Shown here: positions 391 through 23,366 of the stretch, piece after piece
How positions within the stretch are numbered: the stretch's first letter is position 1
How the letters are laid out: every line of letters begins with the position of its first letter
Assembly: GCF_004343705.1 (NCBI RefSeq)
Contig: NZ_SKFH01000008.1
Location: 1-64,000 of the forward strand
DNA from: Flaviaesturariibacter aridisoli
GTDB lineage: Bacteria > Bacteroidota > Bacteroidia > Chitinophagales > Chitinophagaceae
Reading direction: 5' to 3'
Length of the DNA stretch: 64,000 bases
The notes under the pieces: generated by a model
Told to the model about the DNA's origin: nothing
Seen by the model: the letters and a program-made list of their open reading frames with translations, nothing else
Databases searched by the model: none
Program-made: the position numbers and the translations under genes

Positions 391-1158
391 TCAGGCGCCC
401 GCCTGGGCTTCTGCTTCGGCTTCTAATGCCGTGCCGCGGGCGCGGATGATGTTGCGGAATTTCTCGGTGTGCGCATTTACGGCGGCGATGACCTCGGGCC
501 AGGGCGCAGCACCTTCGGCTACATCCAGCTCCACCTCCAGCTTGTGCAGGAGGTTTTCATACACCTCGGGGACCGCGTTGCGGAGGTCTTCAAATGTGTA
601 CTCGCTCGTTGCCTGTGAGCGCAGGATCGTGCGCTGCAGGTAGTTGTCGTTGAAGTCGTTGTTGATGGCAGCGAGGTCGTCGCTGAAATGCGCCGCCGGC
701 AGCAGGAGGGCGGCATCGGCGGCGCCGGGTGCGGTGCGGAGGTCTTTCAGGATGCCGTTGATGGCGGACGTCTGGTCGTTGTATTCGAGCCGGCGGACAT
801 CACTGGGCGTAGGGCCGTATTTCTTGAACAGGTTTTGCAACAGGAGCGCAGCCGCCCGCTCACGGGGTTTCAGCTCATTGGCCGCATAGGCGTCGAGGAG
901 CCAATACAAGCCGCTCAGGATGCCGTCGCGCAGGGCATCGAATCGGGCGATGGCGTCGGAAAGCTGCGAGTCGGTGCTTTGCTTGTGCACCAGTTCCATT
1001 TGCGCCACCTTGGTCCGAAGCTGGTCGATAAGGGCGGCGAGCTTCACCGAGGGGGCGGGAACGAGGCGCAGGATGAGGGTGACAAGGCCTTTGAGAAACT
1101 GGATCAGTTGTCCGTTGTGGAGCCGGGCGAGGCTCAGGGATGTGGTTTTGGTTGCCAT
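391..1158 (-). CDS. hypothetical protein (255 aa, helical, no recognizable motifs)
   Basis: Long ORF with native GC and plausible ATG; no catalytic motif recognized. Confidence 0.5.
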   Translation of the reverse strand: MATKTTSLSLARLHNGQLIQFLKGLVTLILRLVPAPSVKLAALIDQLRTKVAQMELVHKQSTDSQLSDAIARFDALRDGILSGLYWLLDAYAANELKPRERAAALLLQNLFKKYGPTPSDVRRLEYNDQTSAINGILKDLRTAPGAADAALLLPAAHFSDDLAAINNDFNDNYLQRTILRSQATSEYTFEDLRNAVPEVYENLLHKLEVELDVAEGAAPWPEVIAAVNAHTEKFRNIIRARGTALEAEAEAQAGA

Positions 1159-1261
1159 AAAATGTTTGATTTAGTTTATTTAAGCTAGGCAAAAGGACGG
1201 TTCCCAGCAAACTATTTTCGGTGCAACTGATAATCAATCGGTTCTGTATGACCGCTAGCGC

Positions 1262-1501
1262 CCAACGGCTGTTTTTTGCCGCTGCGCGCTGCAGCAGCCC
1301 GCCAACGATCGTTTTTTCGTTGCTGCACGCTGCAGCAGCCTTCCGATAGCCGTTTTTTGCCCGCTGCACGGTGCACGAAGCTTCCGACGTTCGTTTTTGG
1401 GCGCTGCACGGTGCAGGAAGAAAAAAACGGGTGTTTTTTGGGTGCTGCAGCGTGTAGGAAGGGAAAAACGACCGTTTTTGCGCTGCTGCCTTGTGGAGGG
1501 G
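1262..1501. repeat. tandem array, ~41-bp unit x6
   Basis: Degenerate units, each with CGTTTTTTG followed by GCTGCACGCTGCAGCAGC (contains GCTGC/GCAGC inverted repeat). Spurious ORFs on both strands cross it. Confidence 0.85.
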
Positions 1502-1569
1502 TTCGGCGGAAGCTGGAATCTGCAAAAAGAGAGCGGAAACTGCCCATCATGAGACAGCGAATCGGAGAA

Positions 1570-1610
1570 TTTGCTTAAAATCTGCAAATAATCGAAAAAA
1601 TATGTTTGTG
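1570..1610 (+). promoter_or_regulatory. putative Bacteroidetes-type promoter for the abiL-like operon
   Basis: TATGTTTG (TAnnTTTG -7 box) at 1602-1609 with TTG upstream, ~45 bp before the ATG at 1652. Confidence 0.4.
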
Positions 1611-1651
1611 GCTTCGGCGCTCCTACTACCTTAGCAGGTATAACCCATCCT

Positions 1652-2935
1652 ATGTTTATTGATTTCAGTGTCAAGAATTTCCGTTCAATCAAGGACTTGC
1701 AGACGATCAGTTTCGTAGCGACGGGACTAAAAAGCCCGGAGCAATATGTAGAAGTGGATCGGAACAATATAGTTAACGAGGGCGAGTTGCGATTACTGAA
1801 AACGGTTGGGATTTATGGGGCTAATGCGTCAGGAAAGAGCAATGTGGTGCTAGCATTAGATCGATTCATGGAAGCTATTTGGAGCGAGGCGAGCACTGAA
1901 TCAAATCTGGACGAATTATTTCAGCCTTTTCTTTTTCAAACTGACAGGGAGAATACGGATATTTTTTTCCAAGTTAATTTTCTACTCGAAGGGAAAAAGT
2001 ATAGATACGGGTTCACGGTTAAAAAGAATATGGAATACGATGGCGATAATAAAAATAGTCGCCATATTATTTCCAGTGAGTGGCTTTTCGGGCCGAAAGA
2101 GAAAAATGTTGTCCCTCTTTTTACAAGAAAAGGACTTGAAATCAAAAAGGATAAACTAGCGAATCATGAACGTATTCCCCCTTTGCAATATCCGCACACT
2201 CTTTTTCTGACTCATGCTTCTGCGTTTGATCGTGAGAGTATTTGTACGGAAGTGAGAGAATTTCTCAGACTCTACACTTTATCGAATGTCAACTTCAAGG
2301 AGCTAGCGCTCTTCCGAAGGAGTGCATTAAATCTTATTGAAGATGAGGGACGGAAGGAACCATTTCTTGCGATGATGTCAGCCTTCGGACTGCCTTACGA
2401 CGATGTTATCGTGGAGCGTGGTGGCGATGATGATTCTAAGGTTGTGTCGTTGGATAAGATTTTTCTAACTCGAAATGTGGTTGCTTCGGATGGTAAGGTC
2501 TATCCGGTAAAATTGAATTTAGGAACAACCGAGTCGGAGGGCACTCGTAAGCTTTTCGATTTATTAGGGCTGATTTATCGCGCTTTTGATTCTGTCGATC
2601 CAGCCATGTTTATTTTGGATGAGATCGATAGCAATTTCCATCCTAGCCTTTTGATTCATCTTCTAAAGATGTTCAACAATCCTGAGATAAATAAGAGTAA
2701 TTCTCAGTTGTTATTCACAAGTCATGATACAAACTTGATGTCGCCATCAATTATGCGTAGGGATCAATTCTTCTTTGCGGAAAAGCTGGATGAGGCAACG
2801 AAGGTTTTTAGTCTGTCCGACTTAAGGGGTATTCGAAATGATGCGGATTTCGCCCGTATGTATCTTTCTGGACTGTTGGGGGCAAAGCCAATTTTGCACG
2901 ACTATAAATTTATTGATAGCGATGGAAGTAATTGA
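1652..2935 (+). CDS. AAA_21-type ATPase (AbiLi-like abortive-infection ATPase)
   Basis: N-terminal MFIDFSVKNFRSIKD..IYGANASGKSN Walker A typical of the AAA_21/AAA_15 SMC-like ATPase family. Low-GC gene in high-GC genome. Overlaps downstream RloB-like gene. Confidence 0.85.
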   Translation: MFIDFSVKNFRSIKDLQTISFVATGLKSPEQYVEVDRNNIVNEGELRLLKTVGIYGANASGKSNVVLALDRFMEAIWSEASTESNLDELFQPFLFQTDRENTDIFFQVNFLLEGKKYRYGFTVKKNMEYDGDNKNSRHIISSEWLFGPKEKNVVPLFTRKGLEIKKDKLANHERIPPLQYPHTLFLTHASAFDRESICTEVREFLRLYTLSNVNFKELALFRRSALNLIEDEGRKEPFLAMMSAFGLPYDDVIVERGGDDDSKVVSLDKIFLTRNVVASDGKVYPVKLNLGTTESEGTRKLFDLLGLIYRAFDSVDPAMFILDEIDSNFHPSLLIHLLKMFNNPEINKSNSQLLFTSHDTNLMSPSIMRRDQFFFAEKLDEATKVFSLSDLRGIRNDADFARMYLSGLLGAKPILHDYKFIDSDGSN

Positions 2936-3671
2936 ACCTTGGGATCTACAGGCTGATTCAGTTAGAAGTTCGGATACTGTTAATAATGTTATCATTTTCT
3001 GTGAAGATGATGCCGTTGAGCCAACTTACTTTCAGGACTTTGGTACCCCTAATTTGCATGTCAGTATTAATAGGAATTACAAGCAGCATCACTTTCATGT
3101 AGATGCCGTTGTAGAACATTTTCGGGCAATAGGAATGTTGGAGTTTGTAGACGGTGTAGAACGTTTGAAAATTGATGAAGGGAGTTATGTGTGGTGTGTT
3201 TTCGATCGAGATAAAGCCCCGGATAAAGCCGACGCGGCTTTCAATTTATCTATAAGGAATGCGGAAGATATGGGCGTTCGAGTTGCTTGGAGCAATGATA
3301 ATTTCGAGCTTTGGCTCCTACTACATTTTGAAAATGTTCCTTTGGATAATCCAACTTTTGAACATAGGGATACTTATTATGGTCGTTTGACTGAAATCGT
3401 TGCTGAAGGGCCAGCTGTTAATTCTGCACATCAGGCAATACTAAATCAAATTGCAGCTGGCGCTCCAACGTACAGTTATTACAATTGGATGAAGAGTGAG
3501 TCAAATTTTAAAAATGTTACTAGACATTTATTAACGGGTCTCACATCCGATGCCATACAACGGGCAAGGGCCTTACACGATCATTTCTCAACGCCAGCAA
3601 GACCACCGCACCAAATGATGCCGTGCACGCTGGTCTATCAATTGGTAGAGCAATTACTGAGCCTGCAATAA
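2922..3671 (+). CDS. RloB-like / Toprim-like protein (AbiLii-like)
   Basis: Internal ATG overlapping stop of upstream ATPase by 14 bp. VIIFCEDDAVEP and VWCVFDRD acidic motifs typical of RloB (pfam13707) Toprim-like partners of AAA_21 ATPases. Low GC. Confidence 0.7.
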   Translation: MEVIEPWDLQADSVRSSDTVNNVIIFCEDDAVEPTYFQDFGTPNLHVSINRNYKQHHFHVDAVVEHFRAIGMLEFVDGVERLKIDEGSYVWCVFDRDKAPDKADAAFNLSIRNAEDMGVRVAWSNDNFELWLLLHFENVPLDNPTFEHRDTYYGRLTEIVAEGPAVNSAHQAILNQIAAGAPTYSYYNWMKSESNFKNVTRHLLTGLTSDAIQRARALHDHFSTPARPPHQMMPCTLVYQLVEQLLSLQ

Positions 3672-3683
3672 TAACTTGTAAGC

Positions 3684-4088
3684 ATGAGGCAGGCACTCAC
3701 CTTCCGCCCCCGCTACTTCCTCCTCGCCCTCCTCCTCTTCCTCATCGAAGTACTCATCGCCCTGTACGTCAACGACTGGCTCATCCGCCCCTATGGCGGC
3801 GACTACCTCGTGGTGACCCTGCTCTACTGCGGGCTGCGGGCATTCGTCAACGTGACGCCGTGGAAGGGCGCGCTCGCCGTGCTGCTGTTTGCCTACGCCA
3901 TCGAAACAGCGCAGTATTTCGAGCTCGTGCGGCACCTGGGTCTTTCCCATAACCGCGTGGCCCGCACCGTTATCGGTACCGGCTTCGAATGGAAGGACCT
4001 GCTGGCGTATACGCTGGGCATCATCACGGTGCTGCTGCTGGAATACAGAGTGCCCGTCACCCTTCGGCTGCGCTCAGGGCGACAGTAA
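3684..4088 (+). CDS. DUF2809-like small membrane protein
   Basis: 134 aa, 3-4 TM segments, ALYVNDWLIRPYGGDYLVV motif reminiscent of DUF2809. GC back to genome level. Confidence 0.5.
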   Translation: MRQALTFRPRYFLLALLLFLIEVLIALYVNDWLIRPYGGDYLVVTLLYCGLRAFVNVTPWKGALAVLLFAYAIETAQYFELVRHLGLSHNRVARTVIGTGFEWKDLLAYTLGIITVLLLEYRVPVTLRLRSGRQ

Positions 4089-8370: not shown

Positions 8371-9468
8371 CTAGGGGGCTATACATCGGTGCAACTCCTC
8401 CAGCGGCGACTCTTCCAGCACGTCGCGCATTACCCCGCTTCCTTCGCGGCGCCATTTAACCAGGCGCAGCTGGCCCCCTTCGATCTCGATCCCCGTGATC
8501 TCGCCGTCGGAGAAGCAGCAGCAGCCGCTGTTGAAATAAGTAGGCTTCAGCTTCAGGTAATCTTCGGAAAGATGGCTGTATTCAAACTGCCGCTTGCGGA
8601 TCTCGGCCTCGATGGCCGGCACCGAAGGATCGTTGTCGGCGCGGGCGTACAGCAACTGTCGATACAGCCGCTCGATGTGCGTGAGCGATTCGAATACGGG
8701 CTGGTGCGTGTGCCCGGTGATGAGCAGCAACCCGGGTTGCTGTGCGCTCCATTCGTACATCAGCGTGTTGTGGAGCGTCTTCAGCGTGGTGTCGTAGGCC
8801 GGCGTGTTGGGGTTGATCTGGAGCCAGCTTTGAAAGGGCGCCCAGATGCGGGCCACGAAGAATTTGCTGAACCAGTTTCCGTCGCTTACCTCGTCGCCCT
8901 GGTGGCCATGGGTGCAGAAGATCTCGAGCGGCCCGTTGGCGGTTTCGGTACGCAGCAATACACCCTCGTAAATGGGCACCGCGGTGCCGAAGGCGGCCTT
9001 GAGGTAAACGGGCGCCAGCGGATCGTTGTCCCACAGCAGGTCGTGGTTGCCAAAGATCTTGGTAAAGGCGCCACGGTCCTGGAACAGCCGCTCCTTTTCG
9101 AAGGTGGCGGCCTGCGCCTTACTCACGGCGAGCCAGCTGTTTTCCCAGAGCTCCTCGCAATCGCCGAGGGCGATGTAGTGATAGCCTTCGCGGTTGTAAT
9201 GCTCCAGCGCGGCGAGGTAGGCCGGCTCGCATACGGTGAAGTCGTCGGCACCGTTGCGCGTACCCTTGTGTTGGTCGGAAAAGATGATGAACTTCCCGGC
9301 GTCGCGGCTGAAAGGCAGCACGAGCCCTTTTTTAAAGGACCCTTTGCGCAAGCAGTCGAGCAGCTTCGAGAGGGCGGCAAACACGCGTTCCTTGTTGGGT
9401 GCCGACGAGTATCTGGCGGAGAGCCGGAGGACGGGTTTCAAGAGAATACGGCGGAGGAGTCTACGCAT
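8371..9468 (-). CDS. metallophosphoesterase (calcineurin-like)
   Basis: GDCEELW, GNHD, GHTHQP metal-binding motifs. Confidence 0.8.
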   Translation of the reverse strand: MRRLLRRILLKPVLRLSARYSSAPNKERVFAALSKLLDCLRKGSFKKGLVLPFSRDAGKFIIFSDQHKGTRNGADDFTVCEPAYLAALEHYNREGYHYIALGDCEELWENSWLAVSKAQAATFEKERLFQDRGAFTKIFGNHDLLWDNDPLAPVYLKAAFGTAVPIYEGVLLRTETANGPLEIFCTHGHQGDEVSDGNWFSKFFVARIWAPFQSWLQINPNTPAYDTTLKTLHNTLMYEWSAQQPGLLLITGHTHQPVFESLTHIERLYRQLLYARADNDPSVPAIEAEIRKRQFEYSHLSEDYLKLKPTYFNSGCCCFSDGEITGIEIEGGQLRLVKWRREGSGVMRDVLEESPLEELHRCIAP

Positions 9469-12797: not shown

Positions 12798-13409
12798 ATG
12801 GATACCCCAGCTCCCGCTCTTCCCGGTTACCGCGTTCACGAATACCGCCTTGTGCTGGCGCTGCCCGATCCGCTCCGGGAGCGCATTGCGCATTTACGCG
12901 AACGCCTCCACGAGCGCCACCGCGTGAAACCGCCCTTCGACCTGCAGCCTTCGCTGACGGTGCTGCAATGTCATGCCTTCGAAAAATCCGAGCCCCGCTT
13001 TCTTGAGCGCCTGCAGGAAGTAGCACGCGGGCTCAGTCCCTTCAAGGTGGAACTCGAAAACTTCGCGGCCTACCCCTCGCACACGATCTACATCCACGTG
13101 CCCACGCGCCGTCCCTTCCAGGAGCTGTCGCGGGAATTGAAAAAGCTGCAGTGGCTGATGAACATTCCCGGGCAGGAGCCGCACTTCATCACGGAGCCCG
13201 AGCTCATCCTGGCGCAGCGTCTGAAGCCGATGCCCTTTATCGGGATGTGGATGGAATGCGAGCACAGCGAATTCAGCGGCCGCTTTATGGCCGACCACCT
13301 GGTGCTGCTGCGCCGCCATGCCGGCATCGGTCACTGGGAAGTGCTGCGCCGCCTCGACCTGCTGGAATTGCCCTCAGCGGTCAAACAGGGATGCCTGTTC
13401 GGAGGATGA
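12798..13409 (+). CDS. hypothetical protein, possibly 2H-phosphoesterase/LigT-like fold
   Basis: 203 aa; weak resemblance to 2'-5' RNA ligase superfamily proteins. No clean HxT/S dyad seen. Confidence 0.35.
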   Translation: MDTPAPALPGYRVHEYRLVLALPDPLRERIAHLRERLHERHRVKPPFDLQPSLTVLQCHAFEKSEPRFLERLQEVARGLSPFKVELENFAAYPSHTIYIHVPTRRPFQELSRELKKLQWLMNIPGQEPHFITEPELILAQRLKPMPFIGMWMECEHSEFSGRFMADHLVLLRRHAGIGHWEVLRRLDLLELPSAVKQGCLFGG

Positions 13410-14117
13410 ACCCAGCTCGGGGTAATCTACCGGCGCCAGCGTAGCCTCGTGGTTGCTGTCGGCACCCGGCCGGCCGATGGAGCGATCGATCGTGTGGGCC
13501 TGCAGGAAGCCTTCGGGGCAGGGGCAAAGCAACTCCTGGACCTGCTCCTTCGCCAGCTCGGGGTCGAGCCAGCGGCTCCAGGCTTCACGCGGGAGGATCA
13601 CCGGCATCCGCTGCTTCGTGTTGTGGATGCGGGCCATAAAGGGATTGGCCTCGGTGGTGAGAATGGAAAAGGTGCGGTACAATTCACCCGTTTCCGGCTC
13701 GGTCCAATGGCTGTAGATGCCGGCGAACGCAAAGAGCTCGTCGCCCTGGGCGCGAACGAAATGCGGGTACTTCTTTTTCTGGTATTCCATCCATTCGAAG
13801 AAGCCGTCGGCGAGCACCAGGCAGCGCCGCTTGGGGATATAATTCCGGAAGGACGGTTTCTCGAAGACCGTCTCCGCCTTCGCGTTGAGCGTCTGGGTCC
13901 TCAGCTTTTGCGCCTCGGCCAGTCCGGCCGTCCAGTGCGGGATGAGGCCCCAGCTATAGGCCTGCACTTTGCCCGGTTCCTGCGACGTGATCACCGGCAT
14001 CAGCGGAAAGGTAAAACCGTTGGCGTGGTACACGGGCTCGAAGGGCATCTCCCATTCCGCGGCGATCAGCTGGAGTACCTGCGCCTGCTTCTTCGTAATT
14101 GAATAATGATAACACAT
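13374..14117 (-). CDS. SOS response-associated peptidase (SRAP/YedK, abasic-site processing protein)
   Basis: N-terminal MCYHYS (catalytic Cys2). Family-typical WGLIPHW and FAGIY motifs. Confidence 0.85.
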   Translation of the reverse strand: MCYHYSITKKQAQVLQLIAAEWEMPFEPVYHANGFTFPLMPVITSQEPGKVQAYSWGLIPHWTAGLAEAQKLRTQTLNAKAETVFEKPSFRNYIPKRRCLVLADGFFEWMEYQKKKYPHFVRAQGDELFAFAGIYSHWTEPETGELYRTFSILTTEANPFMARIHNTKQRMPVILPREAWSRWLDPELAKEQVQELLCPCPEGFLQAHTIDRSIGRPGADSNHEATLAPVDYPELGSSSEQASLFDR

Positions 14118-14140
14118 CGACCTAAAGTTAGAACAGCTTC

Positions 14141-15256
14141 ATGACACGAAACAACCTCCTCCATACGAAGAACGATCTCGGCAAGATTGCACAAAACGAA
14201 ACCGAAGATCCGTATGTCAAAGGGCGCGGTGCCCAGTTCAATACCGCCAACCGCTTCGACCGGACGCAGTACAGCACCGCGCACGTGGAAGGCATCGATG
14301 AATGGGTGGAAGCATCGGTACAAACCCAGTTCATCGAAGTGCAGGCCAAAACGCTGGTCAACAAGGTGGAGAGCCCCGACGTGGGCATGCTCTACAGCAT
14401 GAATCCTTACCAGGGTTGCGAGCACGGATGCATCTACTGCTATGCGCGCAATTCCTTTGAATACCTCGGCTTCAGCGCAGGCCTCGACTTTGAAAGCAAG
14501 ATCCACGTGAAGCAAAATGCCGCGCAACTGCTGCGGCAGTTCCTGCAACACCCGAAGTGGACCTGCGTACCTCTGAGCCTCAGCGGCAATACCGACTGCT
14601 ACCAGCCCGCCGAGCGCCGCTTTCGCCTCACACGCAGCTTGCTGGAAGTGTGCCTCGAATTCAACCAGCCGGTGGGCATCATCACCAAGAACGCCGGTGT
14701 GCTGCGCGATGCCGACCTGTTGCAGCAACTTGCTGAACGAAGGCTCGTGTCGGTGATCATGACCATCACCTCGCTGCAGGAAGACCTCCGCCGCGTGCTC
14801 GAGCCGCGCACCACCACCGGCGCGCAGCGGTTGCGCACCATCGAAGGCCTCAGTAAAATCGGGGTGCAAACGGGGGTGATGCTCGGCCCGATGATCCCCG
14901 GGCTCAACGAGCAGGAAATGCCCGCCATCCTGAAAGCCGCAAGCGAAGTGGGCGCCACCTTTTCCGCCTATACGTTCATCCGGCTCAATGGCGCCGTGAA
15001 GCTGCTTTTCCACGACTGGCTCTACAAGAATTTTCCCGACCGTGCCGACAAGGTGTGGCACTTCATCGAGTCGGCGCACGGCGGCCGCGTCAACGACAGC
15101 GAGTTTGGAAGGCGCATGCGCGGCGAGGGGAATATCGCGCAACTCGTGGCCGATCAATACAAAGCTTATACGCGGAAATACGGCTTTCACCACGAACGCC
15201 TGGGCCTCGATTGTACGCAGTTTCGCCGGCCCGGCGAGCAGATGAAGCTTTTCTGA
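14141..15256 (+). CDS. radical SAM protein, PA0069/SplB-like (COG1533 DNA-repair photolyase-like)
   Basis: CEHGCIYCYA CxxxCxxC radical SAM motif. Family signature residues follow. Confidence 0.8.
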   Translation: MTRNNLLHTKNDLGKIAQNETEDPYVKGRGAQFNTANRFDRTQYSTAHVEGIDEWVEASVQTQFIEVQAKTLVNKVESPDVGMLYSMNPYQGCEHGCIYCYARNSFEYLGFSAGLDFESKIHVKQNAAQLLRQFLQHPKWTCVPLSLSGNTDCYQPAERRFRLTRSLLEVCLEFNQPVGIITKNAGVLRDADLLQQLAERRLVSVIMTITSLQEDLRRVLEPRTTTGAQRLRTIEGLSKIGVQTGVMLGPMIPGLNEQEMPAILKAASEVGATFSAYTFIRLNGAVKLLFHDWLYKNFPDRADKVWHFIESAHGGRVNDSEFGRRMRGEGNIAQLVADQYKAYTRKYGFHHERLGLDCTQFRRPGEQMKLF

Positions 15257-16393: not shown

Positions 16394-16633
16394 TGTTACG
16401 CTAAACCCGAAGCCATGAAATTTCTCCTCATCACACTCGCCATTACCGCGCTGTTCCGCTACCTGCTGCCGGAACGCACGGGAAAAACATAAGGCCCCCG
16501 GGCCAAAAAGCTTCCCCAACGGGAAGACAGGTATCCCGTCGGAGATCCAAACCAAGGTGAGGGTTTCCAACGCCCCGCAGTGCGGCCCGCATCGGTTGCC
16601 GTATGCTGTTGCCTCCGAGGCGGTACCTGCCAA

Positions 16634-16722
16634 CCACTGCCGCAAGGCAGACTCGTGTTGCGGGTTCGAATCCCGTTTCCACTTCGGGTGGAATAGCTCA
16701 ACGGTAGAGCAGGGCACTGTTA
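16634..16722 (+). ncRNA. circularly permuted tRNA-like element (T-arm / capped acceptor helix / D-arm); candidate YrlA-type Y RNA module
   Basis: GCGGG-TTCGAAT-CCCGT T-arm (16660-16676). Then TTTCCAC-TTCG(G)-GTGGAA helix with UUCG-type cap (16677-16693). Then TA-GCTC-AACGGTA-GAGC-A D-arm (16694-16711). Preceded by CTGCC-GCAA-GGCAG GNRA hairpin. No anticodon arm. Confidence 0.45.
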
Positions 16723-17013
16723 ACGCTCGATGGAGCCGGCCGCTCCCAAAACAGGCCAGCCAAATAAAAGCACGGTTCGCAAACCGGTTGTGCATCGCCG
16801 TTAGCAGCGATGATGCAGCACTCCGGTAGCAGCCTGTAGCCGGTAGGCAGCCCGGCGCCGCACGATCCGCCTCGCAAGCTTACCCGCAGCTCCAGCGCTG
16901 CGGCGCTTCCAGAGCCGCTTCACAACGCGCCCCGCTGCCGCCGTCTCCGCCGCCACCCGAGGGAAAGCGAGCCGTGCTTTTTTAAACAACTGAAACGAAT
17001 AAAAACGATAGCA

Positions 17014-18111
17014 ATGAAAAAGGTACGGATCGCTGCCGTGCAGGCAGCACTGGTTTTTCGCCACGGTGTATACCAGCGCCTCCTCACCGAGGGCGTATAC
17101 TGGCTGTGGGGCGCCGACACCGCGCAGGTGTTCGACAGGGGCCAGCCCTTTGTTCCGGGCATGGAGCTGAACCTCCTCCTGGCGCACGAAGACCTGGCCC
17201 GGGAACTGGAAGTAGTAGAAGTAGCAGGGCACGAGATCGTGCTGCAATACAGCGATGGCGTGCTGAACACCGTGCTGACGCCGGGCCGCTACGCCTTCTG
17301 GAAGGGTGTGCTGCGCTACGACTTCGTGCGGGCCGACCTCTCGAAGATCGCGATCACCGAGCCCATCGACCGCACCACGCTCGGACATCGGCTGGTGGCG
17401 CCCTTCGTGCGCAGCTACACCGTGGAAGCCTTCGAGCGCGCCGTGCTCCTTGTAGACGGCAAGTACGCCGGCCTCCTCGACAGCGGCACCTACCAGTGGT
17501 GGAAGAACGCCATCACGATCCAGGTAGCGAAGGTGGATACGCGCCTGCAGCAGCTCGAGCTGAGCGGCCAGGAGATCCTGACCCGCGACAAGGCGATGCT
17601 GCGGATCAACGCCTTTGCACAGTACGGCGTGACGGACGTGGAAAAGGCGCTCCTGCACAACAAGGAACACGAGCGGCAGCTCTACGTACAGGTGCAGCTC
17701 GCCCTCCGCGAATACATCGGCGGCTACTCCCTCGACGAGTTGCTCGAAAAGCGGGCCGACCTCGTAGAATCGGTGCTCCGCTCGGTGCAAACCGCGGCCG
17801 CAACGCTCGGTGTGGAAGTACGGCACTTCGGTATCCGCGACATCATCCTGCCGGGGGATGTAAAGGAGATCCTCAACAGCATGCTGCTGGCGGAGAAGAA
17901 AGCACAGGCCAACAGCATCATGCGCCGCGAGGAAACGGCGAGCACGCGCAGCCTGCTCAACACGGCCAAGCTGATGGAAGAAAACAGCATGCTGTTCAAA
18001 CTCAAGGAGCTCGAATACGTGGAGAAGATCGCCGACAGGATCGGCAGCCTATCGGTGAGCGGCAACAGCCAGCTCCTCGAGCAGCTGAAGGCCCTGTTCG
18101 TGCCGAAATAA
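17014..18111 (+). CDS. SPFH/band-7 (slipin/stomatin-like) domain protein
   Basis: Central SPFH-like region with long C-terminal coiled-coil. Typical stomatin-family organization. Confidence 0.75.
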   Translation: MKKVRIAAVQAALVFRHGVYQRLLTEGVYWLWGADTAQVFDRGQPFVPGMELNLLLAHEDLARELEVVEVAGHEIVLQYSDGVLNTVLTPGRYAFWKGVLRYDFVRADLSKIAITEPIDRTTLGHRLVAPFVRSYTVEAFERAVLLVDGKYAGLLDSGTYQWWKNAITIQVAKVDTRLQQLELSGQEILTRDKAMLRINAFAQYGVTDVEKALLHNKEHERQLYVQVQLALREYIGGYSLDELLEKRADLVESVLRSVQTAAATLGVEVRHFGIRDIILPGDVKEILNSMLLAEKKAQANSIMRREETASTRSLLNTAKLMEENSMLFKLKELEYVEKIADRIGSLSVSGNSQLLEQLKALFVPK

Positions 18112-18121
18112 GAACAACCAA

Positions 18122-18157
18122 GACCGGGAAGCGACTTCCCGCCTCCCGGTCTTTTTT
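18122..18157 (+). terminator. rho-independent terminator
   Basis: GACCGGGAAGCGACTTCCCGCCTCCCGGTC hairpin + TTTTTT. Confidence 0.65.
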
Positions 18158-18159
18158 AC

Positions 18160-18232
18160 TGGCCTGTAGCTCAATGGTAGAGTACGCGCCTCTTAAGCGT
18201 GGGGTTGTGGGCTCGCGTCCCACCGGGCCAAC
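18160..18232 (+). tRNA. tRNA-Lys (anticodon CTT), atypical T-loop
   Basis: Cloverleaf folds by eye: acceptor TGGCCTG/CGGGCCA, D-arm GCTC-AATGGTA-GAGT, anticodon stem CGCGC/GCGTG with loop CTCTTAA, T-stem GTGGG/CCCAC. T-loop is CTCGCGT rather than TTCRANT. Coordinates +/-1. Confidence 0.6.
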
Positions 18233-18235
18233 GAA

Positions 18236-18308
18236 GGACAAATAGCTCCAATTGGTAGAGCAGCGGATTGAAGCTCCGCCCGTGCAGGTTCGAGTCCTGC
18301 TTTGTCCA
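18236..18308 (+). tRNA. tRNA-Phe (anticodon GAA)
   Basis: GGACAAA acceptor, GCTC-CAATTGGTA-GAGC D-arm, GCGGA-TTGAAGC-TCCGC anticodon arm, GCAGG-TTCGAGT-CCTGC T-arm, TTTGTCC-A 3' end. Confidence 0.85.
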
Positions 18309-18405
18309 CTGATCAAACCGGTAGCGGACCGGGGTGCCAGGGGCACTGAAAGTCGAAAATGGATGAACCGGCCGCCGCACGGCCACAATCAAAAAGGAGG
18401 CGTTT

Positions 18406-18822
18406 ATGCTTTGGAAATTATTCGGCCGCCGGATCAAAAGCCCGGTAGGCCTCTTCAACGGACCGTTCTTCGACGTGCGCACGGCCTACGTGCTCCGTTT
18501 CGATCGCTTGCCCTCGGTAACGGGCGTGGGCGAGATCGACGGCGGCAAGGCCTACGCGCACCTGCGCGCCGCCCTTGGGCCGCGTGTGCGGAAGACCTGG
18601 CAGCACAGCTACTTCGATCGCTCGGAAGATGGCGTGCGCTTCAACGTCACGATCCTGGAGCTCGACAACCGGTCGATGCTGGAGATCGGACCCGCCTGGG
18701 TGGAAGTGTTGCACGATGGCGACTTCCACTGGGCCAACACATTGGTTACGGAGCTGGCCGCCTTTCGCGATCAGCCCAAAGAAACAAGCATCGGCTTTGC
18801 CCGCAGCAGGTCGATGAATTAA
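18406..18822 (+). CDS. hypothetical protein (138 aa)
   Basis: ORF with native codon usage, 1-bp gap to downstream AAA ATPase gene (operon-like). Confidence 0.45.
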   Translation: MLWKLFGRRIKSPVGLFNGPFFDVRTAYVLRFDRLPSVTGVGEIDGGKAYAHLRAALGPRVRKTWQHSYFDRSEDGVRFNVTILELDNRSMLEIGPAWVEVLHDGDFHWANTLVTELAAFRDQPKETSIGFARSRSMN

Positions 18823-18823
18823 A

Positions 18824-19906
18824 ATGCAGACAGACATGCAACATTTAATTGACCAGAAAACGGTCAGCATCAACGAAGCGCTGGGCGATTATTTTCCCGA
18901 CAGCCGCGCCTTTTACCTCGCGCACTTCGGGCGGATACCGAGCCGGCATTTTATTTCCGGCGTCAGCGGCGACCGACTGGTGACCGCTTTCCGAGAAGCG
19001 TTCGGGTCACTGATCGCCGACACCTACCAGAATCAGTGGTACGACGGCAAGCGCAAGCGCTACGAGCTCGACAAGACGCTTTTTGTGCTGCACAACGGTT
19101 GCGTAGTGGAGATCGCGCATTACTGCGAAATCCTGCACAACGGTAGCCAGGAAGCTTTTATAGCCGACTGCACCCGGCTGGCAGGCAAATACCGCGAACG
19201 GGAAAAGCGGCAGCCACAGGAGATCAACCTCATCGTGCGGGGCGAGTACGGACTATCGCTCAAGTCGATGGAGATCAAGCGCACGCGGCTCGACACGACG
19301 CTGTTTTACGAAGACGACTTCGCTCCCGTAGATTCCGTGATCCGGCAACGCCTGCGCCAGAAGAACGACAAGGGGATCGTGCTGCTCCACGGCCTGCCAG
19401 GGACTGGTAAGACTACGTACCTGCGCTACCTGGTAGGGCAAACCAAAAAGCGCGTGCTCTTCCTGTCGCCTTCGGTGGCGGGCAACTTGATGGATCCCGA
19501 CTTCATCGACCTGCTGGTGGACAATCCCAACACAGTGCTGGTGATCGAGGACGCAGAGAACGTGCTGATGGACCGGCGCGCCGGCCCCCATGCCGGGGTG
19601 TCGAACCTGCTCAACATCTCCGAAGGGCTGCTGGCCGACTTCCTGAACGTGCAGCTCATCTGCACCTTCAACAGCCCGGTGGCGCTCATCGACGCGGCGC
19701 TGTTGCGGAAGGGTCGCCTCATTGCCCGCTACGAATTCGGGAAGCTGGGCGTGGACAAGGCGCAGCGGCTCAGCGATGCGCTCGGCTTCGGCAGCCGTAT
19801 CACGCGGCCCATGACGCTGGCGGAGATCACGACGCAACATGAGCCCGCGCCACCCGAAATGCGTACGGAGGTGATCGGCTTTAGGCGGTTCGCGCTCGAG
19901 AACTAA
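18824..19906 (+). CDS. AAA+ ATPase (classical AAA domain) with ~180-aa N-terminal domain of unknown function
   Basis: GIVLLHGLPGTGKTT Walker A, VLVIEDAE Walker B, LLRKGRL arginine-finger/sensor region. Confidence 0.75.
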   Translation: MQTDMQHLIDQKTVSINEALGDYFPDSRAFYLAHFGRIPSRHFISGVSGDRLVTAFREAFGSLIADTYQNQWYDGKRKRYELDKTLFVLHNGCVVEIAHYCEILHNGSQEAFIADCTRLAGKYREREKRQPQEINLIVRGEYGLSLKSMEIKRTRLDTTLFYEDDFAPVDSVIRQRLRQKNDKGIVLLHGLPGTGKTTYLRYLVGQTKKRVLFLSPSVAGNLMDPDFIDLLVDNPNTVLVIEDAENVLMDRRAGPHAGVSNLLNISEGLLADFLNVQLICTFNSPVALIDAALLRKGRLIARYEFGKLGVDKAQRLSDALGFGSRITRPMTLAEITTQHEPAPPEMRTEVIGFRRFALEN

Positions 19907-19987
19907 CCTCACCCCCGACCCCGCTCCGGGCGGAGCGGGGAGTGCTTCACGTAAAGACGCACCAGGTGCGTCTCAAAACAAACGACA

Positions 19988-20470
19988 ATGGAACAAAACC
20001 AATGGCGGCGGCTGGATGGCAGGACCATCCAGTTGCCCATCGATGAAGAAGTGCGGCGGGCCCTGCTCCGCGAAGGAGCTGCCGGCCACGAACTCAGCGT
20101 GAGCATCGGCTCCGACAGCCAGGTGAAGGGCGGCACGATCGTGTTTGCCACGGTGATCGTATTTCTGCGGAAAGGCCGTGGTGGCTTCTTCTTTATTCAG
20201 AGCGACAAAGCCGAGCGGCGCATGACCGTCAAGGAGCGGATGCTCGAAGAGGTAACCCGGGGCATCGAAACGGCATACGAATTGGCGCCCGTCTTTGCGA
20301 AATACGGCGTGCCGCTTGAAGTGCATGCCGATATCAACCCGGACCCGAAGTTCAAAAGCAACGAGGCTTTCCGGGAGGCAATGGGATACATCATGGGCAT
20401 GGGCTTTTCCTTCCGGGCCAAGCCGAACGCCTTTGCCGGCTCCAGTTGCGCAAACAAAGTAGTACAATAA
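19988..20470 (+). CDS. DUF458/YkuK-like (RNase H-like fold) protein
   Basis: IGSDSQ, HADINPD and KPNAFAGSSCANK motifs recalled from the B. subtilis YkuK family. Confidence 0.5.
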   Translation: MEQNQWRRLDGRTIQLPIDEEVRRALLREGAAGHELSVSIGSDSQVKGGTIVFATVIVFLRKGRGGFFFIQSDKAERRMTVKERMLEEVTRGIETAYELAPVFAKYGVPLEVHADINPDPKFKSNEAFREAMGYIMGMGFSFRAKPNAFAGSSCANKVVQ

Positions 20471-20541
20471 CGTAACGCGTATACCGTGGCCGTGAGCATT
20501 TCGCTGGCGGCTTACCGGTTGCGGCTCGAAAAAAAAGTAAA

Positions 20542-21996
20542 ATGGCAAAATTGAAAATGACCGGAAAGGAGCTTCGCGGCATCGGTTACCCAGAGTCGCC
20601 GGTGATCTCGATGGCCATGGGGCTGATGGAAAAGCACTACAAGCATTCCTCGCTCGATGAGGCGTTGAAGATCCTTTCGAATATCAAAGAAGCGCCGGCC
20701 GACTACCTGGAGCACCCGGTGCTGGGCAAGATCGCGGCGCAGCTGCTCCCGAAGCCGGCAGCGGAAGGCGCCGAAGTGTCGCTCAATTCGAGCGGCATTA
20801 CGTTCTCCGTGTTCGGATCCGAAGGCATCGAGGCCGGGGCGCTGCACCAGATGTACACCGCGGCCAAGCTGCCCGTGGCGGTGGCGGGCGCCCTCATGCC
20901 CGACGCGCATTCGGGCTACGGCCTGCCTATCGGGGGCGTGCTGGCCACCGACAACGCCGTGATCCCCTATGGCGTGGGGGTAGACATCGGCTGCCGGATG
21001 TGCCTCTCCGTGTTCGACTTGCCCGAAAAGGACCTCGAGGCGAAGACCGGGTTTTTCGCACGCACCATCCAGGAGAATACCGTCTTTGGTTCGGGCGGTC
21101 AGCTGGCCCGGGCCGCCGACCACGAGGTGCTGCACAGCAACCTGTTCAACGAGATCGGCCTGCTCAAAGGGCTGCACGGCAAGGCCTGGAAGCAACTCGG
21201 CACTTCGGGCTCGGGCAACCACTTCGTGGAGTTCGGGGCGGTCACCGTAGACGAGTTCGACCCGGTGCTGGGCGTACCGGCGGGCACCTACCTGGGCCTG
21301 CTGTCGCACTCGGGCTCGCGGGCGCTGGGGGCAAACATCGCCAACCACTACACGAAGCTGGCCAAACAAAAGCGGCGCCTGCCGGCCGAAGCCTCGAACC
21401 TGGCCTGGCTGGGACTGGATGAAGCAGAAGGCATGGAGTACTGGCTGGCGATGAACCTGGCTGGCGACTATGCCGCGGCATGCCATCATGTGATCCATGA
21501 AAAAGTGGCGCGGGCCCTGGGCCGCCGGCCGCTGCGGCGGGTGGAGAACCACCACAATTTCGCCTGGAAGGAGCCGTGGGAGGGGCGCGAGGTGATCGTG
21601 CACCGGAAAGGCGCCACCCCGGCGGGCGCGGGCGTGCTGGGCATCATCCCCGGCTCGATGACCGCCCCCGGCTTTATTGTAAAGGGCAAAGGCGAGCCGG
21701 CCTCCGTGCATTCGGCTTCCCACGGCGCCGGCCGGCGGATGAGCCGCACCGCGGCCCTGCAGTCGATCTCCCACGCCGCGCTGCAGGAGCAGCTGCGCGC
21801 GCAGGGAGTGACCCTGCTCGGGGGCGGGCTCGACGAGGCACCGATGGCGTATAAAGACATCCACGCCGTGATGGCCGCCCAGGAGGCGCTGGTGGAAGTG
21901 CTGGGAACCTTTCAGCCGCGCATCGTGCAGATGGATGGTACGCCGCCGAAGCCGTGGATGAAGAAGGGAAAGGGGGAGGAAGTGCCGGGAGCGTAA
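20542..21996 (+). CDS. rtcB: RNA-splicing ligase RtcB
   Basis: MPDAHSGYGLPIGGV, GSGNHF and ASHGAGR RtcB metal/GMP-binding motifs. 484 aa. Confidence 0.9.
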   Translation: MAKLKMTGKELRGIGYPESPVISMAMGLMEKHYKHSSLDEALKILSNIKEAPADYLEHPVLGKIAAQLLPKPAAEGAEVSLNSSGITFSVFGSEGIEAGALHQMYTAAKLPVAVAGALMPDAHSGYGLPIGGVLATDNAVIPYGVGVDIGCRMCLSVFDLPEKDLEAKTGFFARTIQENTVFGSGGQLARAADHEVLHSNLFNEIGLLKGLHGKAWKQLGTSGSGNHFVEFGAVTVDEFDPVLGVPAGTYLGLLSHSGSRALGANIANHYTKLAKQKRRLPAEASNLAWLGLDEAEGMEYWLAMNLAGDYAAACHHVIHEKVARALGRRPLRRVENHHNFAWKEPWEGREVIVHRKGATPAGAGVLGIIPGSMTAPGFIVKGKGEPASVHSASHGAGRRMSRTAALQSISHAALQEQLRAQGVTLLGGGLDEAPMAYKDIHAVMAAQEALVEVLGTFQPRIVQMDGTPPKPWMKKGKGEEVPGA

Positions 21997-22919: not shown

Positions 22920-23366
22920 CTACACGCCGAATTGCCGCAGGTGGTGATCGAGGTGCTTCCACGCGAGGCGGCTCCAGTCCTGGGCACTCATTTTACCGAA
23001 AAAAGGATGATGCGGTGCATGCAGCAGGATGCTGCTGCCCGAAAAGCGCTCGATCAGTGCCGCCAGCCGGTCGCGCTCGGTGTCGAATTCGTGGTCGTCG
23101 GCCACTACGAACTCGCGTGCCGTGGGCAGGCCCTGCGGCCAGGGTTTGTCGGAAAAAAGCTTACGCTTTGCTATGCGTCCGAAAAGCAGGCCTGCAAAAC
23201 TTTGCTTCAGCTTCAGCTCGCCGAAATACACGGTGAAAGGCGCCTGGCAGTGCCGCAGCATCTGGGCAGCGCTCATTTTACCCCAGCGGGGCGGTTGGCC
23301 GGGCTCGAGGCTATAGAGGCGCTCCAGTATTTGCGAAACGCTCCCGGAATCGAAGAGATCGTTCAT
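22920..23366 (-). CDS. hypothetical protein (possibly DUF1569/DinB-like)
   Basis: 148-aa ORF with HxxH-containing C-terminus; assignment weak. Confidence 0.4.
   Translation of the reverse strand: MNDLFDSGSVSQILERLYSLEPGQPPRWGKMSAAQMLRHCQAPFTVYFGELKLKQSFAGLLFGRIAKRKLFSDKPWPQGLPTAREFVVADDHEFDTERDRLAALIERFSGSSILLHAPHHPFFGKMSAQDWSRLAWKHLDHHLRQFGV

Follow-up and report, generated by a model that had tools for sequence, protein, structure and literature searches.

A probable RtcB-centred RNA repair and tRNA backup locus of the Band-7/tRNA-like RNA class in Flaviaesturariibacter aridisoli and other Chitinophagaceae

The RNA ligase gene rtcB of Flaviaesturariibacter aridisoli (Bacteroidota; Chitinophagaceae) closes a series of same-strand genes within the first 64,000 nucleotides of contig NZ_SKFH01000008.1 (NCBI RefSeq assembly GCF_004343705.1, forward strand), the stretch which is referred to here as the window. 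The series comprises a structured non-coding RNA, a gene for an SPFH/Band-7 protein, two transfer RNA (tRNA) genes, and the genes for a 138-residue protein, an AAA ATPase, a YkuK/DUF458 protein and RtcB. It probably constitutes an RtcB-centred operon for the repair and backup of tRNAs and other RNAs, which belongs to the Band-7/tRNA-like RNA class and has been inherited across the Chitinophagaceae. A preliminary description of this DNA had reported a tRNA-Lys/tRNA-Phe pair followed by four co-directional genes, and ARAGORN, Rfam and Pfam together with an inspection of the open reading frames (ORFs) recovered this arrangement at the same positions. The features of the locus are as follows, all on the plus strand:

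16506 to 16760, + strand: structured non-coding RNA core upstream of the SPFH gene (profile match, sub-threshold Rfam YrlA match, consensus fold)
17014 to 18111, + strand: SPFH/Band-7 protein, 365 residues (Pfam PF01145, E = 3.1e-27, residues 136-307)
18120 to 18159, + strand: hairpin with a U6 tract, intrinsic terminator or attenuator (minimum free energy -23.1 kcal/mol)
18160 to 18232, + strand: tRNA-Lys(CUU) with a degenerate T-loop (ARAGORN; Rfam 59.4 bits, gathering score 29)
18236 to 18309, + strand: tRNA-Phe(GAA) of the array type (ARAGORN; Rfam 60.9 bits, gathering score 29)
18406 to 18822, + strand: 138-residue stand-alone paralogue of the AAA N-domain (BLASTP against the adjacent ATPase)
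18824 to 19906, + strand: Bcs1/YjoB-like classical AAA ATPase, 360 residues (Pfam PF00004, residues 186-305; Foldseek)
19988 to 20470, + strand: RNase H-like YkuK/DUF458 protein, 160 residues (PF04308, E = 4.5e-30)
20542 to 21996, + strand: RtcB RNA ligase, 484 residues (PF01139, E = 3.8e-81)

The strongest evidence comes from the conservation of the neighbourhood. A set of 80 species-level loci, all Chitinophagaceae-like, was anchored on the AAA ATPase (52-76% identity in this protein; individual loci are cited by L numbers), the proteins of the window were mapped onto them by tblastn, and their tRNAs were called with ARAGORN. At least 6.5 kilobases (kb) of downstream sequence was available for 61 loci and enough upstream sequence for 65, with 53 loci covered on both sides. 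An rtcB gene lies downstream of the AAA gene on the same strand in 53 of the 61 loci. Among the 53 fully covered loci, 35 contain DUF458, 28 contain SPFH, and 23 combine both of them with RtcB; when all 80 loci are considered, an SPFH homologue is found somewhere in 39. The commonest gene order is DUF458-AAA-SPFH-RtcB, the order in Niastella is AAA-DUF458-SPFH-RtcB, and the clade of the window is characterized by SPFH-tRNA-AAA; the order has been reshuffled, with DUF458 or SPFH on either side of AAA, and yet the linkage is kept. In several genera a minimal form is seen in which rtcB directly follows the AAA gene, and the distance between the two is still 6-7 nucleotides at AAA identities of 49% and 43%, the latter in Chitinophaga skermanii. 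The conserved core of the locus is the AAA-RtcB pair, and DUF458, SPFH with its non-coding RNA, and the tRNA array are variable modules. The neighbourhood check called for in the preliminary description was positive for AAA, DUF458 and RtcB; its expectation that four genes are co-conserved failed for the 138-residue protein, which is confined to a few genera.

Other genes join this neighbourhood less regularly. In five loci RlaP (PF10127, "RNA repair pathway DNA polymerase beta family", E = 4e-68) is located between SPFH and RtcB, and in eight loci, among them L010, L017, L034 and L058, a DinB_2 protein is encoded in the SPFH-RtcB gap. A DinB_2 gene also occurs 5' of the AAA gene in C. skermanii (L083), such that DinB may be a recurrent partner, and in the window a DinB/DUF1569 gene (22920-23366, minus strand) is found just 3' of the cassette. 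The genes 3' of rtcB in the window recur in its own genus only.

RtcB ligases join a 3'-phosphate or 2',3'-cyclic phosphate end to a 5'-hydroxyl end. The assignment of the last gene of the cassette to this family stands, and the alignment to P. horikoshii RtcB shows that the protein keeps MPDxHxGYG, the D..C motif, GSGNHF, HSGSR, HHN and the motif of the guanylylated histidine, SHGAGR. With every metal-binding and guanylylation motif in place, RtcB is, as far as can be judged from its sequence, catalytically intact. It carries an N-terminal extension of about 95 residues without assigned family. To our knowledge, the substrates and cofactors of bacterial RtcB are still largely unknown.

Within the 64-kb window ARAGORN and Rfam detected exactly two tRNAs, tRNA-Lys and tRNA-Phe, both on the plus strand. 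The spacers between the four downstream ORFs amount to 1, 81 and 71 nucleotides; the database protein of the AAA ATPase begins at M5 (position 18836), by which the first spacer becomes 13 nucleotides instead of 1. All five protein genes (SPFH, 138-residue protein, AAA, DUF458 and RtcB) are intact. The guanine-plus-cytosine (GC) content of the cassette region is 0.59-0.67, as compared with 0.54-0.67 across most of the window, which agrees with the earlier statement that the composition is native and that there is no obvious recent island, and no integrase or mobile-element genes flanking the locus were found among the ORFs and Pfam matches of the window. A scan for sigma-70 promoters is not meaningful for Bacteroidota, and its result was not used. 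A strong Shine-Dalgarno-like AAGGAGG (within 18386-18405) lies 7 nucleotides 5' of the ATG of the 138-residue ORF. Bacteroidota generally do without Shine-Dalgarno-led initiation, which makes this motif unusual here.

The two tRNAs are part of the system and no mere landmark next to it: same-strand tRNA genes are found directly upstream of DUF458 or AAA in 43 of the 65 loci with enough upstream sequence. At least five tRNA genes are present in 28 of these 43 array-bearing loci, with a maximum of 15, and the last of them is 12-316 nucleotides away from the first protein gene. The arrays follow a recurrent order, namely (Pro Gly) (Glu Asp) Gln His Arg (Met Ile-UAU Ile-GAU Val) Lys Asn (Tyr Ser Cys) Phe (Trp). 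The presence of tRNAs tracks that of DUF458 (33 of 38 loci with tRNAs versus 2 of 15 without; Fisher p = 8e-7) as well as that of SPFH (26 of 38 versus 2 of 15; Fisher p = 5e-4), both values being calculated ignoring phylogeny. On the Rfam tRNA model the array tRNAs reach 38-72 bits, G-1 and C73 of tRNA-His are kept in 25 of 25 genes, and the other types have canonical discriminator bases; the array tRNAs still look chargeable. On the other hand, array tRNAs with the same anticodon show a median identity of just 63-84% within one bacterial family, and tRNA-Ile(UAU) as well as a few degenerate anticodons or members are found in the arrays. The related loci and the window contain 44 tRNA-Phe(GAA) genes, nearly all at the 3' end of an array. 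The array tRNA-Phe is 53-70% identical to the sole canonical-looking tRNA-Phe of the data set, which stands outside any array, and has G37 or an odd D-arm; the copy in the window has G37 (anticodon loop UUGAAGC) and an unusual D-loop. Because of this divergence, and because related genera differ in array content over a range of 0 to 15 genes, the array tRNAs are read as accessory yet functional.

A simpler view would be that of an ordinary housekeeping tRNA operon, with the cassette standing downstream of it by inherited synteny or in order to use a borrowed tRNA promoter, and without any shared function. The retention of aminoacylation identity elements and the good scores of the array tRNAs would be in line with this view, every locus comes from one family, and many loci also keep, on the upstream side, a radical-SAM gene that has nothing to do with RNA repair, from which it follows that some plain synteny exists. 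However, an array content ranging from 0 to 15 is impossible for sole copies of essential tRNAs, and the low identities among array members and between array-type and canonical-looking tRNA-Phe, the occurrence of Ile(UAU) and degenerate anticodons, and the co-variation of the tRNAs with DUF458 and SPFH speak against it as well. We consider a housekeeping operon quite unlikely. As to the radical-SAM gene, 42 of the 80 loci carry it at a distance of 0.4-7.5 kb upstream of AAA or of the tRNA array, and the array seems to have been inserted between this gene and AAA; plain synteny and a functional link between the responses to DNA damage and to RNA damage are both conceivable. In the window, the radical-SAM gene (PF04055, plus strand) and a gene for an SOS-response-associated peptidase (SRAP, minus strand) form a divergent pair at 13374-15256.

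The T-arm of tRNA-Lys in the window reads GTGGG-CTCGCGT-CCCAC with C at both positions 54 and 58, and the non-canonical T-loop pointed out in the preliminary description is thus genuine. The loop is non-canonical in three of three Flaviaesturariibacter species, which suggests relaxed constraint. In the Flaviaesturariibacter/Flavisolibacter clade, tRNA-Lys follows 43-50 nucleotides 3' of SPFH (L003, L006, L013), the distance in the window being 49 nucleotides. The Lys-Phe pair is the presumptive trimmed remnant of a conserved accessory tRNA array. A few array members in other loci are over-long, among them a 113-nucleotide Rfam tRNA match, a tRNA-His with an insert in the region of the T-arm, and a tRNA-Sec-like element of 40.6 bits (L028, 7717-7829; L031, 6723-6814; L043, 6847-6931); introns, insertions or the decay of copies could account for such members.

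A second RNA component precedes the SPFH gene. In most loci the 630-720 nucleotides upstream of SPFH hold no conserved ORF and are conserved as DNA; the idea of a missing ORF in these AAA-to-SPFH gaps was rejected, as clustering of ORFs gave only short frames resembling translated tRNA. The RNAalifold consensus of 12 loci contains 77 base pairs, 42 of them with compensatory changes, and describes an RNA of about 300 nucleotides in which two permuted tRNA-like units stand in tandem between a 5' multi-helix domain and a terminal hairpin. The corresponding profile matches positions 16506-16713 of the window (E = 4.5e-21), and the RNA is found 264-393 nucleotides upstream of SPFH in 37 of the 39 SPFH-containing loci. 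The upstream tRNA-like element which had been noticed is borne out by a match of positions 16633-16737 to the Rfam YrlA model (42.4 bits, E = 1.9e-7), under the gathering score of 69; the RNA of L058 reaches 42.6 bits on the same model. The match covers a T-arm and a D-arm with a closed acceptor-like hairpin between them, and an anticodon-like hairpin follows, such that the layout in the window consists of 5' hairpins, the permuted tRNA-like module and the anticodon-like hairpin, with weaker conservation toward 17013. The window and L078 carry one tRNA-like unit. The system of the window is a reduced one, with two tRNAs, of which one has a damaged T-loop, and a single tRNA-like unit in the non-coding RNA. 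In L074 a full-length copy (9106-9409) is situated between AAA and RtcB with no SPFH gene detected in the locus, which indicates that the RNA can persist without its usual protein partner.

The SPFH protein itself, likewise anticipated in the preliminary description, is unambiguous by its Band_7 match. No Pfam match was obtained for residues 1-139; the N-terminal region of 135 residues has no assigned family, and there is no obvious transmembrane segment. The hairpin between SPFH and tRNA-Lys has a z-score of -4.8 relative to shuffled sequences, and its stem stops 7 nucleotides before the tRNA.

These features call for a comparison with the known RtcB systems. According to the summary given in bioRxiv 10.1101/312249, Burroughs and Aravind (2016) observed some bacterial RtcB proteins beside a Band-7 protein together with an RNA that was predicted to be tRNA-like and termed b7a-tRNA, and the same source mentions that YrlA is occasionally paired with Band-7. 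The locus described here shares with this system, as it is summarized there, an intact RtcB, an SPFH gene on the same strand 2.4 kb upstream of rtcB, and a tRNA-like RNA 300 nucleotides upstream of SPFH, the RNAs being compared by description and not by sequence; a YrlA-type RNA accompanying Band-7 is what the Rfam match suggests here, too, and RlaP is present in some related loci. It differs in that the invariant partner of RtcB is the Bcs1/YjoB-like AAA protein and not SPFH, that DUF458 and up to 15 real tRNA genes are built into the Chitinophagaceae locus, and that the non-coding RNA of about 300 nucleotides has two permuted tRNA-like units and a 5' multi-helix domain. Measured against that summary, the locus extends the Band-7/tRNA-like RNA/RtcB repair system that was predicted in 2016: the combination of SPFH, tRNA-like RNA and RtcB had already been foreseen, and the extension by AAA, DUF458 and the tRNA array appears to be undescribed. 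The AAA-RtcB core, the link to DUF458, the fusion of tRNA array and Band-7 system, and the 138-residue paralogue were not found in the literature within reach, although the 2016 survey may list some of them. This also holds for the earlier remark that DUF458 and AAA are not among the well-described partners of RtcB, no description of which turned up in the same literature.

The operons of Ro60 (Rsr), YrlA and RtcB(A), such as rsr-yrlBA-rtcBA of Salmonella, offer a second parallel, in that a non-coding RNA mimics a tRNA with T-arm, closed acceptor stem and D-arm, and adjoins RtcB and a putative scaffold protein. Here, however, the partner is SPFH; Ro60/TROVE, RtcA and RtcR are missing, the YrlA score stays below the gathering score, and beyond the tRNA-like module the RNA has no relation to YrlA. 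Pfam found no TROVE protein among the neighbour proteins, and no RtcA was present among the genes at 13.4-24 kb of the window. The Rtc system (RtcR-RtcA-RtcB) differs in its ATPase, since the protein of the window belongs to PF00004 and lacks both a sigma-54 interaction domain and a helix-turn-helix motif; an RtcR-like regulator was rejected on these grounds.

A third parallel is provided by the long tRNA arrays of cyanobacteria, which neighbour rtcB, are co-induced under translational stress and aid survival, and for which a role as backup or "sponge" for tRNAs cleaved by toxins was proposed (PMC8421152). Both these L-arrays (trn operon; Santamaria-Gomez et al. 2021, PMC8421152; TrcR repressor, PMC10272220), which are otherwise silent, and the putatively supernumerary arrays of the Chitinophagaceae are tied to RtcB by genomic position and, presumably so in the Chitinophagaceae, by function. 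The latter are shorter (up to about 15 genes, two being kept in the window), appear to be vertically inherited at one chromosomal site and not horizontally spread, and immediately precede AAA/DUF458/SPFH/RtcB on the same strand. PMC8421152 makes no mention of AAA, SPFH or DUF458.

The special feature of the Chitinophagaceae locus is its ATPase, in which an alpha/beta N-domain (about residues 1-180) precedes a single AAA module. No Pfam match was obtained for residues 1-180, BCS1_N included, which matches nowhere in the protein, and NCBIfam has no family for the 138-residue, AAA or DUF458 proteins. The top Foldseek matches of the model of all 360 residues are Bcs1 and YjoB (E about 1e-12, template modelling score about 0.45), and Bcs1 also gives the best PDB sequence matches. 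The novelty of the 180-residue N-domain, as first claimed, is consequently a matter of degree: taken alone, it has neither a Pfam match nor a close solved relative, but the ATPase as a whole resembles Bcs1/YjoB. Bcs1 and Bacillus subtilis YjoB are chambered AAA ATPases that assemble as hexamers or heptamers and act on folded clients, with an N-terminal alpha/beta domain and one classical AAA module as in the present protein, and YjoB has been characterized as a chambered, substrate-specific chaperone (PMC9565160). By its predicted fold the ATPase most resembles these chambered proteins, and it is outside any family with a known housekeeping role. The 138-residue protein has no Pfam match and aligns along the N-domain of the ATPase (residues 24-136, 27% identity, BLASTP E = 5e-11). 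The hypothetical ORF of the preliminary description is thus real and intact, but it is a paralogue of the AAA N-domain and not an independent fourth component. Nine intact homologues were found in the database, all in Chitinophagaceae, and a free-standing copy of the N-domain occurs in 7 of the 80 loci, sometimes between tRNA genes.

The description of the 160-residue protein as a YkuK/DUF458-like, RNase H-like protein was correct, for it is a clear member of PF04308 (RNaseH_like; 104.9 bits against a cut-off of 25). We know of no function for the YkuK/DUF458 family. Its resemblance to the family (PF04308, COG1978; Knizewski and Ginalski 2005; Majorek et al. 2014, PMC3985635) consists in hidden Markov model membership as a single domain and in the conserved Asp (beta1), Glu (alpha1) and Asp (beta4), with the difference that the fourth carboxylate is replaced by Asn in the clade of the window. 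D43, E88, E111, H113, D115 and K145 are invariant from the Chitinophagaceae to homologues in Vibrio phages. The PDB sequence search gave no solved relative. A linkage of the family to tRNA arrays, AAA, SPFH and RtcB, or in phages to DUF2828/DUF7788, was not found described in the literature within reach. No database cluster of at least 90% identity corresponds to the DUF458 protein of the window, the best reaching 86%, whereas F. aridisoli supplies a 100% match for the AAA protein. As the DUF458 ORF is full length, it may be missing from the annotation of the source genome or have been called there in another way.

The juxtaposition of an ATPase and a putative nuclease is a common design in defence, and one might regard the locus as a system of anti-phage or inter-bacterial conflict of the abortive-infection type, in which DUF458 acts as a toxic nuclease under the control of AAA, and RtcB and the spare tRNAs limit self-damage. 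Distant AAA homologues near WYL regulators, one of them in a mobile-element-like context, and homologues of AAA and DUF458 in large phages would agree with such a system, and a general connection exists between RtcB systems and the RNA damage of conflicts (Burroughs and Aravind 2016, as related in bioRxiv 10.1101/312249). PADLOC-DB 2.0, however, gave no meaningful defence match, TRIP13 (E = 1.1e-3) and PbeC (E = 3.8e-3) being hit at the level of the P-loop alone. Furthermore, the GC content is native and the flanks in the window are free of integrase and mobile-element genes, the system is inherited family-wide at a stable site beside the same radical-SAM gene and not as a variable island, and its core is the AAA-RtcB pair, with DUF458 being dispensable in many genomes. 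A conflict system is accordingly unlikely in our judgement. Of the original reading as an RNA-centred stress or defence locus, the part referring to RNA repair and stress stands, with the AAA-RtcB linkage and the five RlaP-containing loci in its favour, and an assignment to a known anti-phage defence system finds no support.

Along similar lines, the phage homologues deserve a closer look. DUF458 homologues are present in 74 phage records, 58 of them of Vibrio phages. In the T4-like Vibrio phages EniLVp02 and D484, the DUF458 gene lies directly 3' of a gene for a DUF2828/DUF7788 "RNA-binding protein" of about 470 residues (L089, 4323-6519, and L091, 6464-8471, respectively), and in D484 this pair is about 6 kb from an array of nine tRNAs, with a homing endonuclease and the array upstream. 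The DUF2828/DUF7788-DUF458 pair of the phages may be a counterpart of the pairing of scaffold and DUF458. The AAA protein has homologues in jumbo phages and in 80 IMG/VR loci, none of them with RtcB, DUF458 or SPFH in the vicinity. The homologue in the Pseudomonas jumbo phage PA5oct has an uninformative context. A scan of IMG/VR for DUF458 gave no confirmed relatives. A tRNA within 8 kb of AAA was seen in 12 of the 80 IMG/VR loci, which is not treated as evidence. In two large viral contigs an array of seven tRNAs (Tyr, Gln, Ile-UAU ... Arg, Glu) precedes the AAA gene by about 400-900 nucleotides (L124, 5089-8558; L136, 3167-8525); the homologue in L124 includes the N-domain, and the layout of both contigs echoes the bacterial one, minus RtcB.

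It could be argued on this basis that the locus is the domesticated remnant of a phage module for tRNA supply and RNA repair, as directed by T4-like or jumbo phages against host anticodon nucleases, and that it no longer works as one unit. The phage gene pair, its vicinity to a tRNA array in D484, the viral AAA homologues with the arrays directly upstream in L124 and L136, the tRNA-Ile(UAU) of the bacterial arrays, and the shrinking array of the window with its degenerate Lys T-loop may be adduced for this origin. Against it stand the protein genes, which are intact at 52-86% identity across many genera, implying purifying selection, the finding that no viral contig combines AAA with RtcB, DUF458 or SPFH, and the native GC content; a phage remnant is hence very improbable. 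The housekeeping, conflict and phage explanations are all less well supported than the RtcB-centred repair and backup operon.

For this operon the following course of events can be envisaged. Ribonucleases acting under stress, or toxins, would cut tRNAs or other RNAs of translation and leave 2',3'-cyclic phosphate ends along with 5'-hydroxyl ends, which RtcB would reseal. By analogy with the proposal made for Ro60 and YrlA, an SPFH oligomer with its tRNA-like RNA might serve as scaffold or decoy, and by analogy with the cyanobacterial arrays the accessory tRNAs might replenish the damaged pool or act as decoys themselves. DUF458, whose occurrence co-varies with the arrays, may process or trim array transcripts, the non-coding RNA or damaged RNA. 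From its persistent adjacency to RtcB and its fold, the AAA ring could be a client-specific chaperone or remodeller for RtcB or for its RNA-protein complex, and the 138-residue copy of the N-domain could modulate whatever this domain binds. In F. aridisoli the array would have shrunk to Lys and Phe, with the Lys T-loop decaying.

A bolder version, which we put forward as a tentative and rather doubtful proposal, is that of a chromosomal island of "tRNA insurance" in the Chitinophagaceae, directed against anticodon nucleases and other toxins of translation. It would supply inducible, divergent and chargeable tRNAs along with RtcB, with AAA as a new RtcB cofactor, DUF458 as an RNA-trimming nuclease, and SPFH as a cage holding the poly-tRNA-like RNA. 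If true, this would provide the first functional context for the DUF458 family and for a large AAA family of about 1,500 clusters at 50% identity.

Several points weigh against the repair and backup operon. Every role beyond the chemistry of RtcB is inferred from context, and the label "accessory" for the array tRNAs is derived from their divergent sequences, odd anticodons and variable array content. The 80 loci come from one bacterial family, and part of the co-occurrence therefore reflects shared ancestry; the Fisher tests on tRNAs, DUF458 and SPFH treat the loci as independent of kinship. The strong terminator between SPFH and the tRNAs means that co-transcription of the whole locus is only presumed, and the damaged T-loop of tRNA-Lys means that part of the system may be decaying in the window. 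In DUF458, the position of the fourth catalytic carboxylate is taken by Asn156 in the clade of the window. Neither RtcB nor DUF458 nor SPFH was found near the viral AAA homologues in the 80 IMG/VR loci, and AAA homologues at 33-38% identity are not beside RtcB in the distant loci examined. One of these distant homologues adjoins a WYL regulator, another stands 3' of a metallo-beta-lactamase/RMMBL gene, in a context that resembles a mobile element and also holds a WYL gene, and the others show no link.

As for these distant relatives, family members of 35-38% identity are located near WYL/WCX regulator genes in L086 (4052-9065) and L087 (8001-10118), and it is in L086 that the AAA gene follows the metallo-beta-lactamase/RMMBL gene, which is of an RNA-metabolising type, in the mobile-element-like context. 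The AAA family may thus have wider roles in RNA metabolism or conflict.

The locus brings together, in one conserved cluster of cultivable soil bacteria, three questions of purpose, namely those of supernumerary tRNA arrays, of cytoplasmic SPFH proteins and of tRNA-like RNAs. It names two uncharacterised families, the Bcs1/YjoB-like AAA proteins and DUF458/YkuK, as candidate partners of RtcB, and it ties bacterial loci to similar genes in large phages. The natural reduction series, with the bare AAA-RtcB pair at one end and the full set with 15 tRNAs at the other, is well suited to genetic dissection. Elsewhere in the window, the GC content falls to 0.40-0.49 at positions 1001-4000, as compared with about 0.6 in the remainder, which may mark a foreign or unusual segment unrelated to the RtcB locus.

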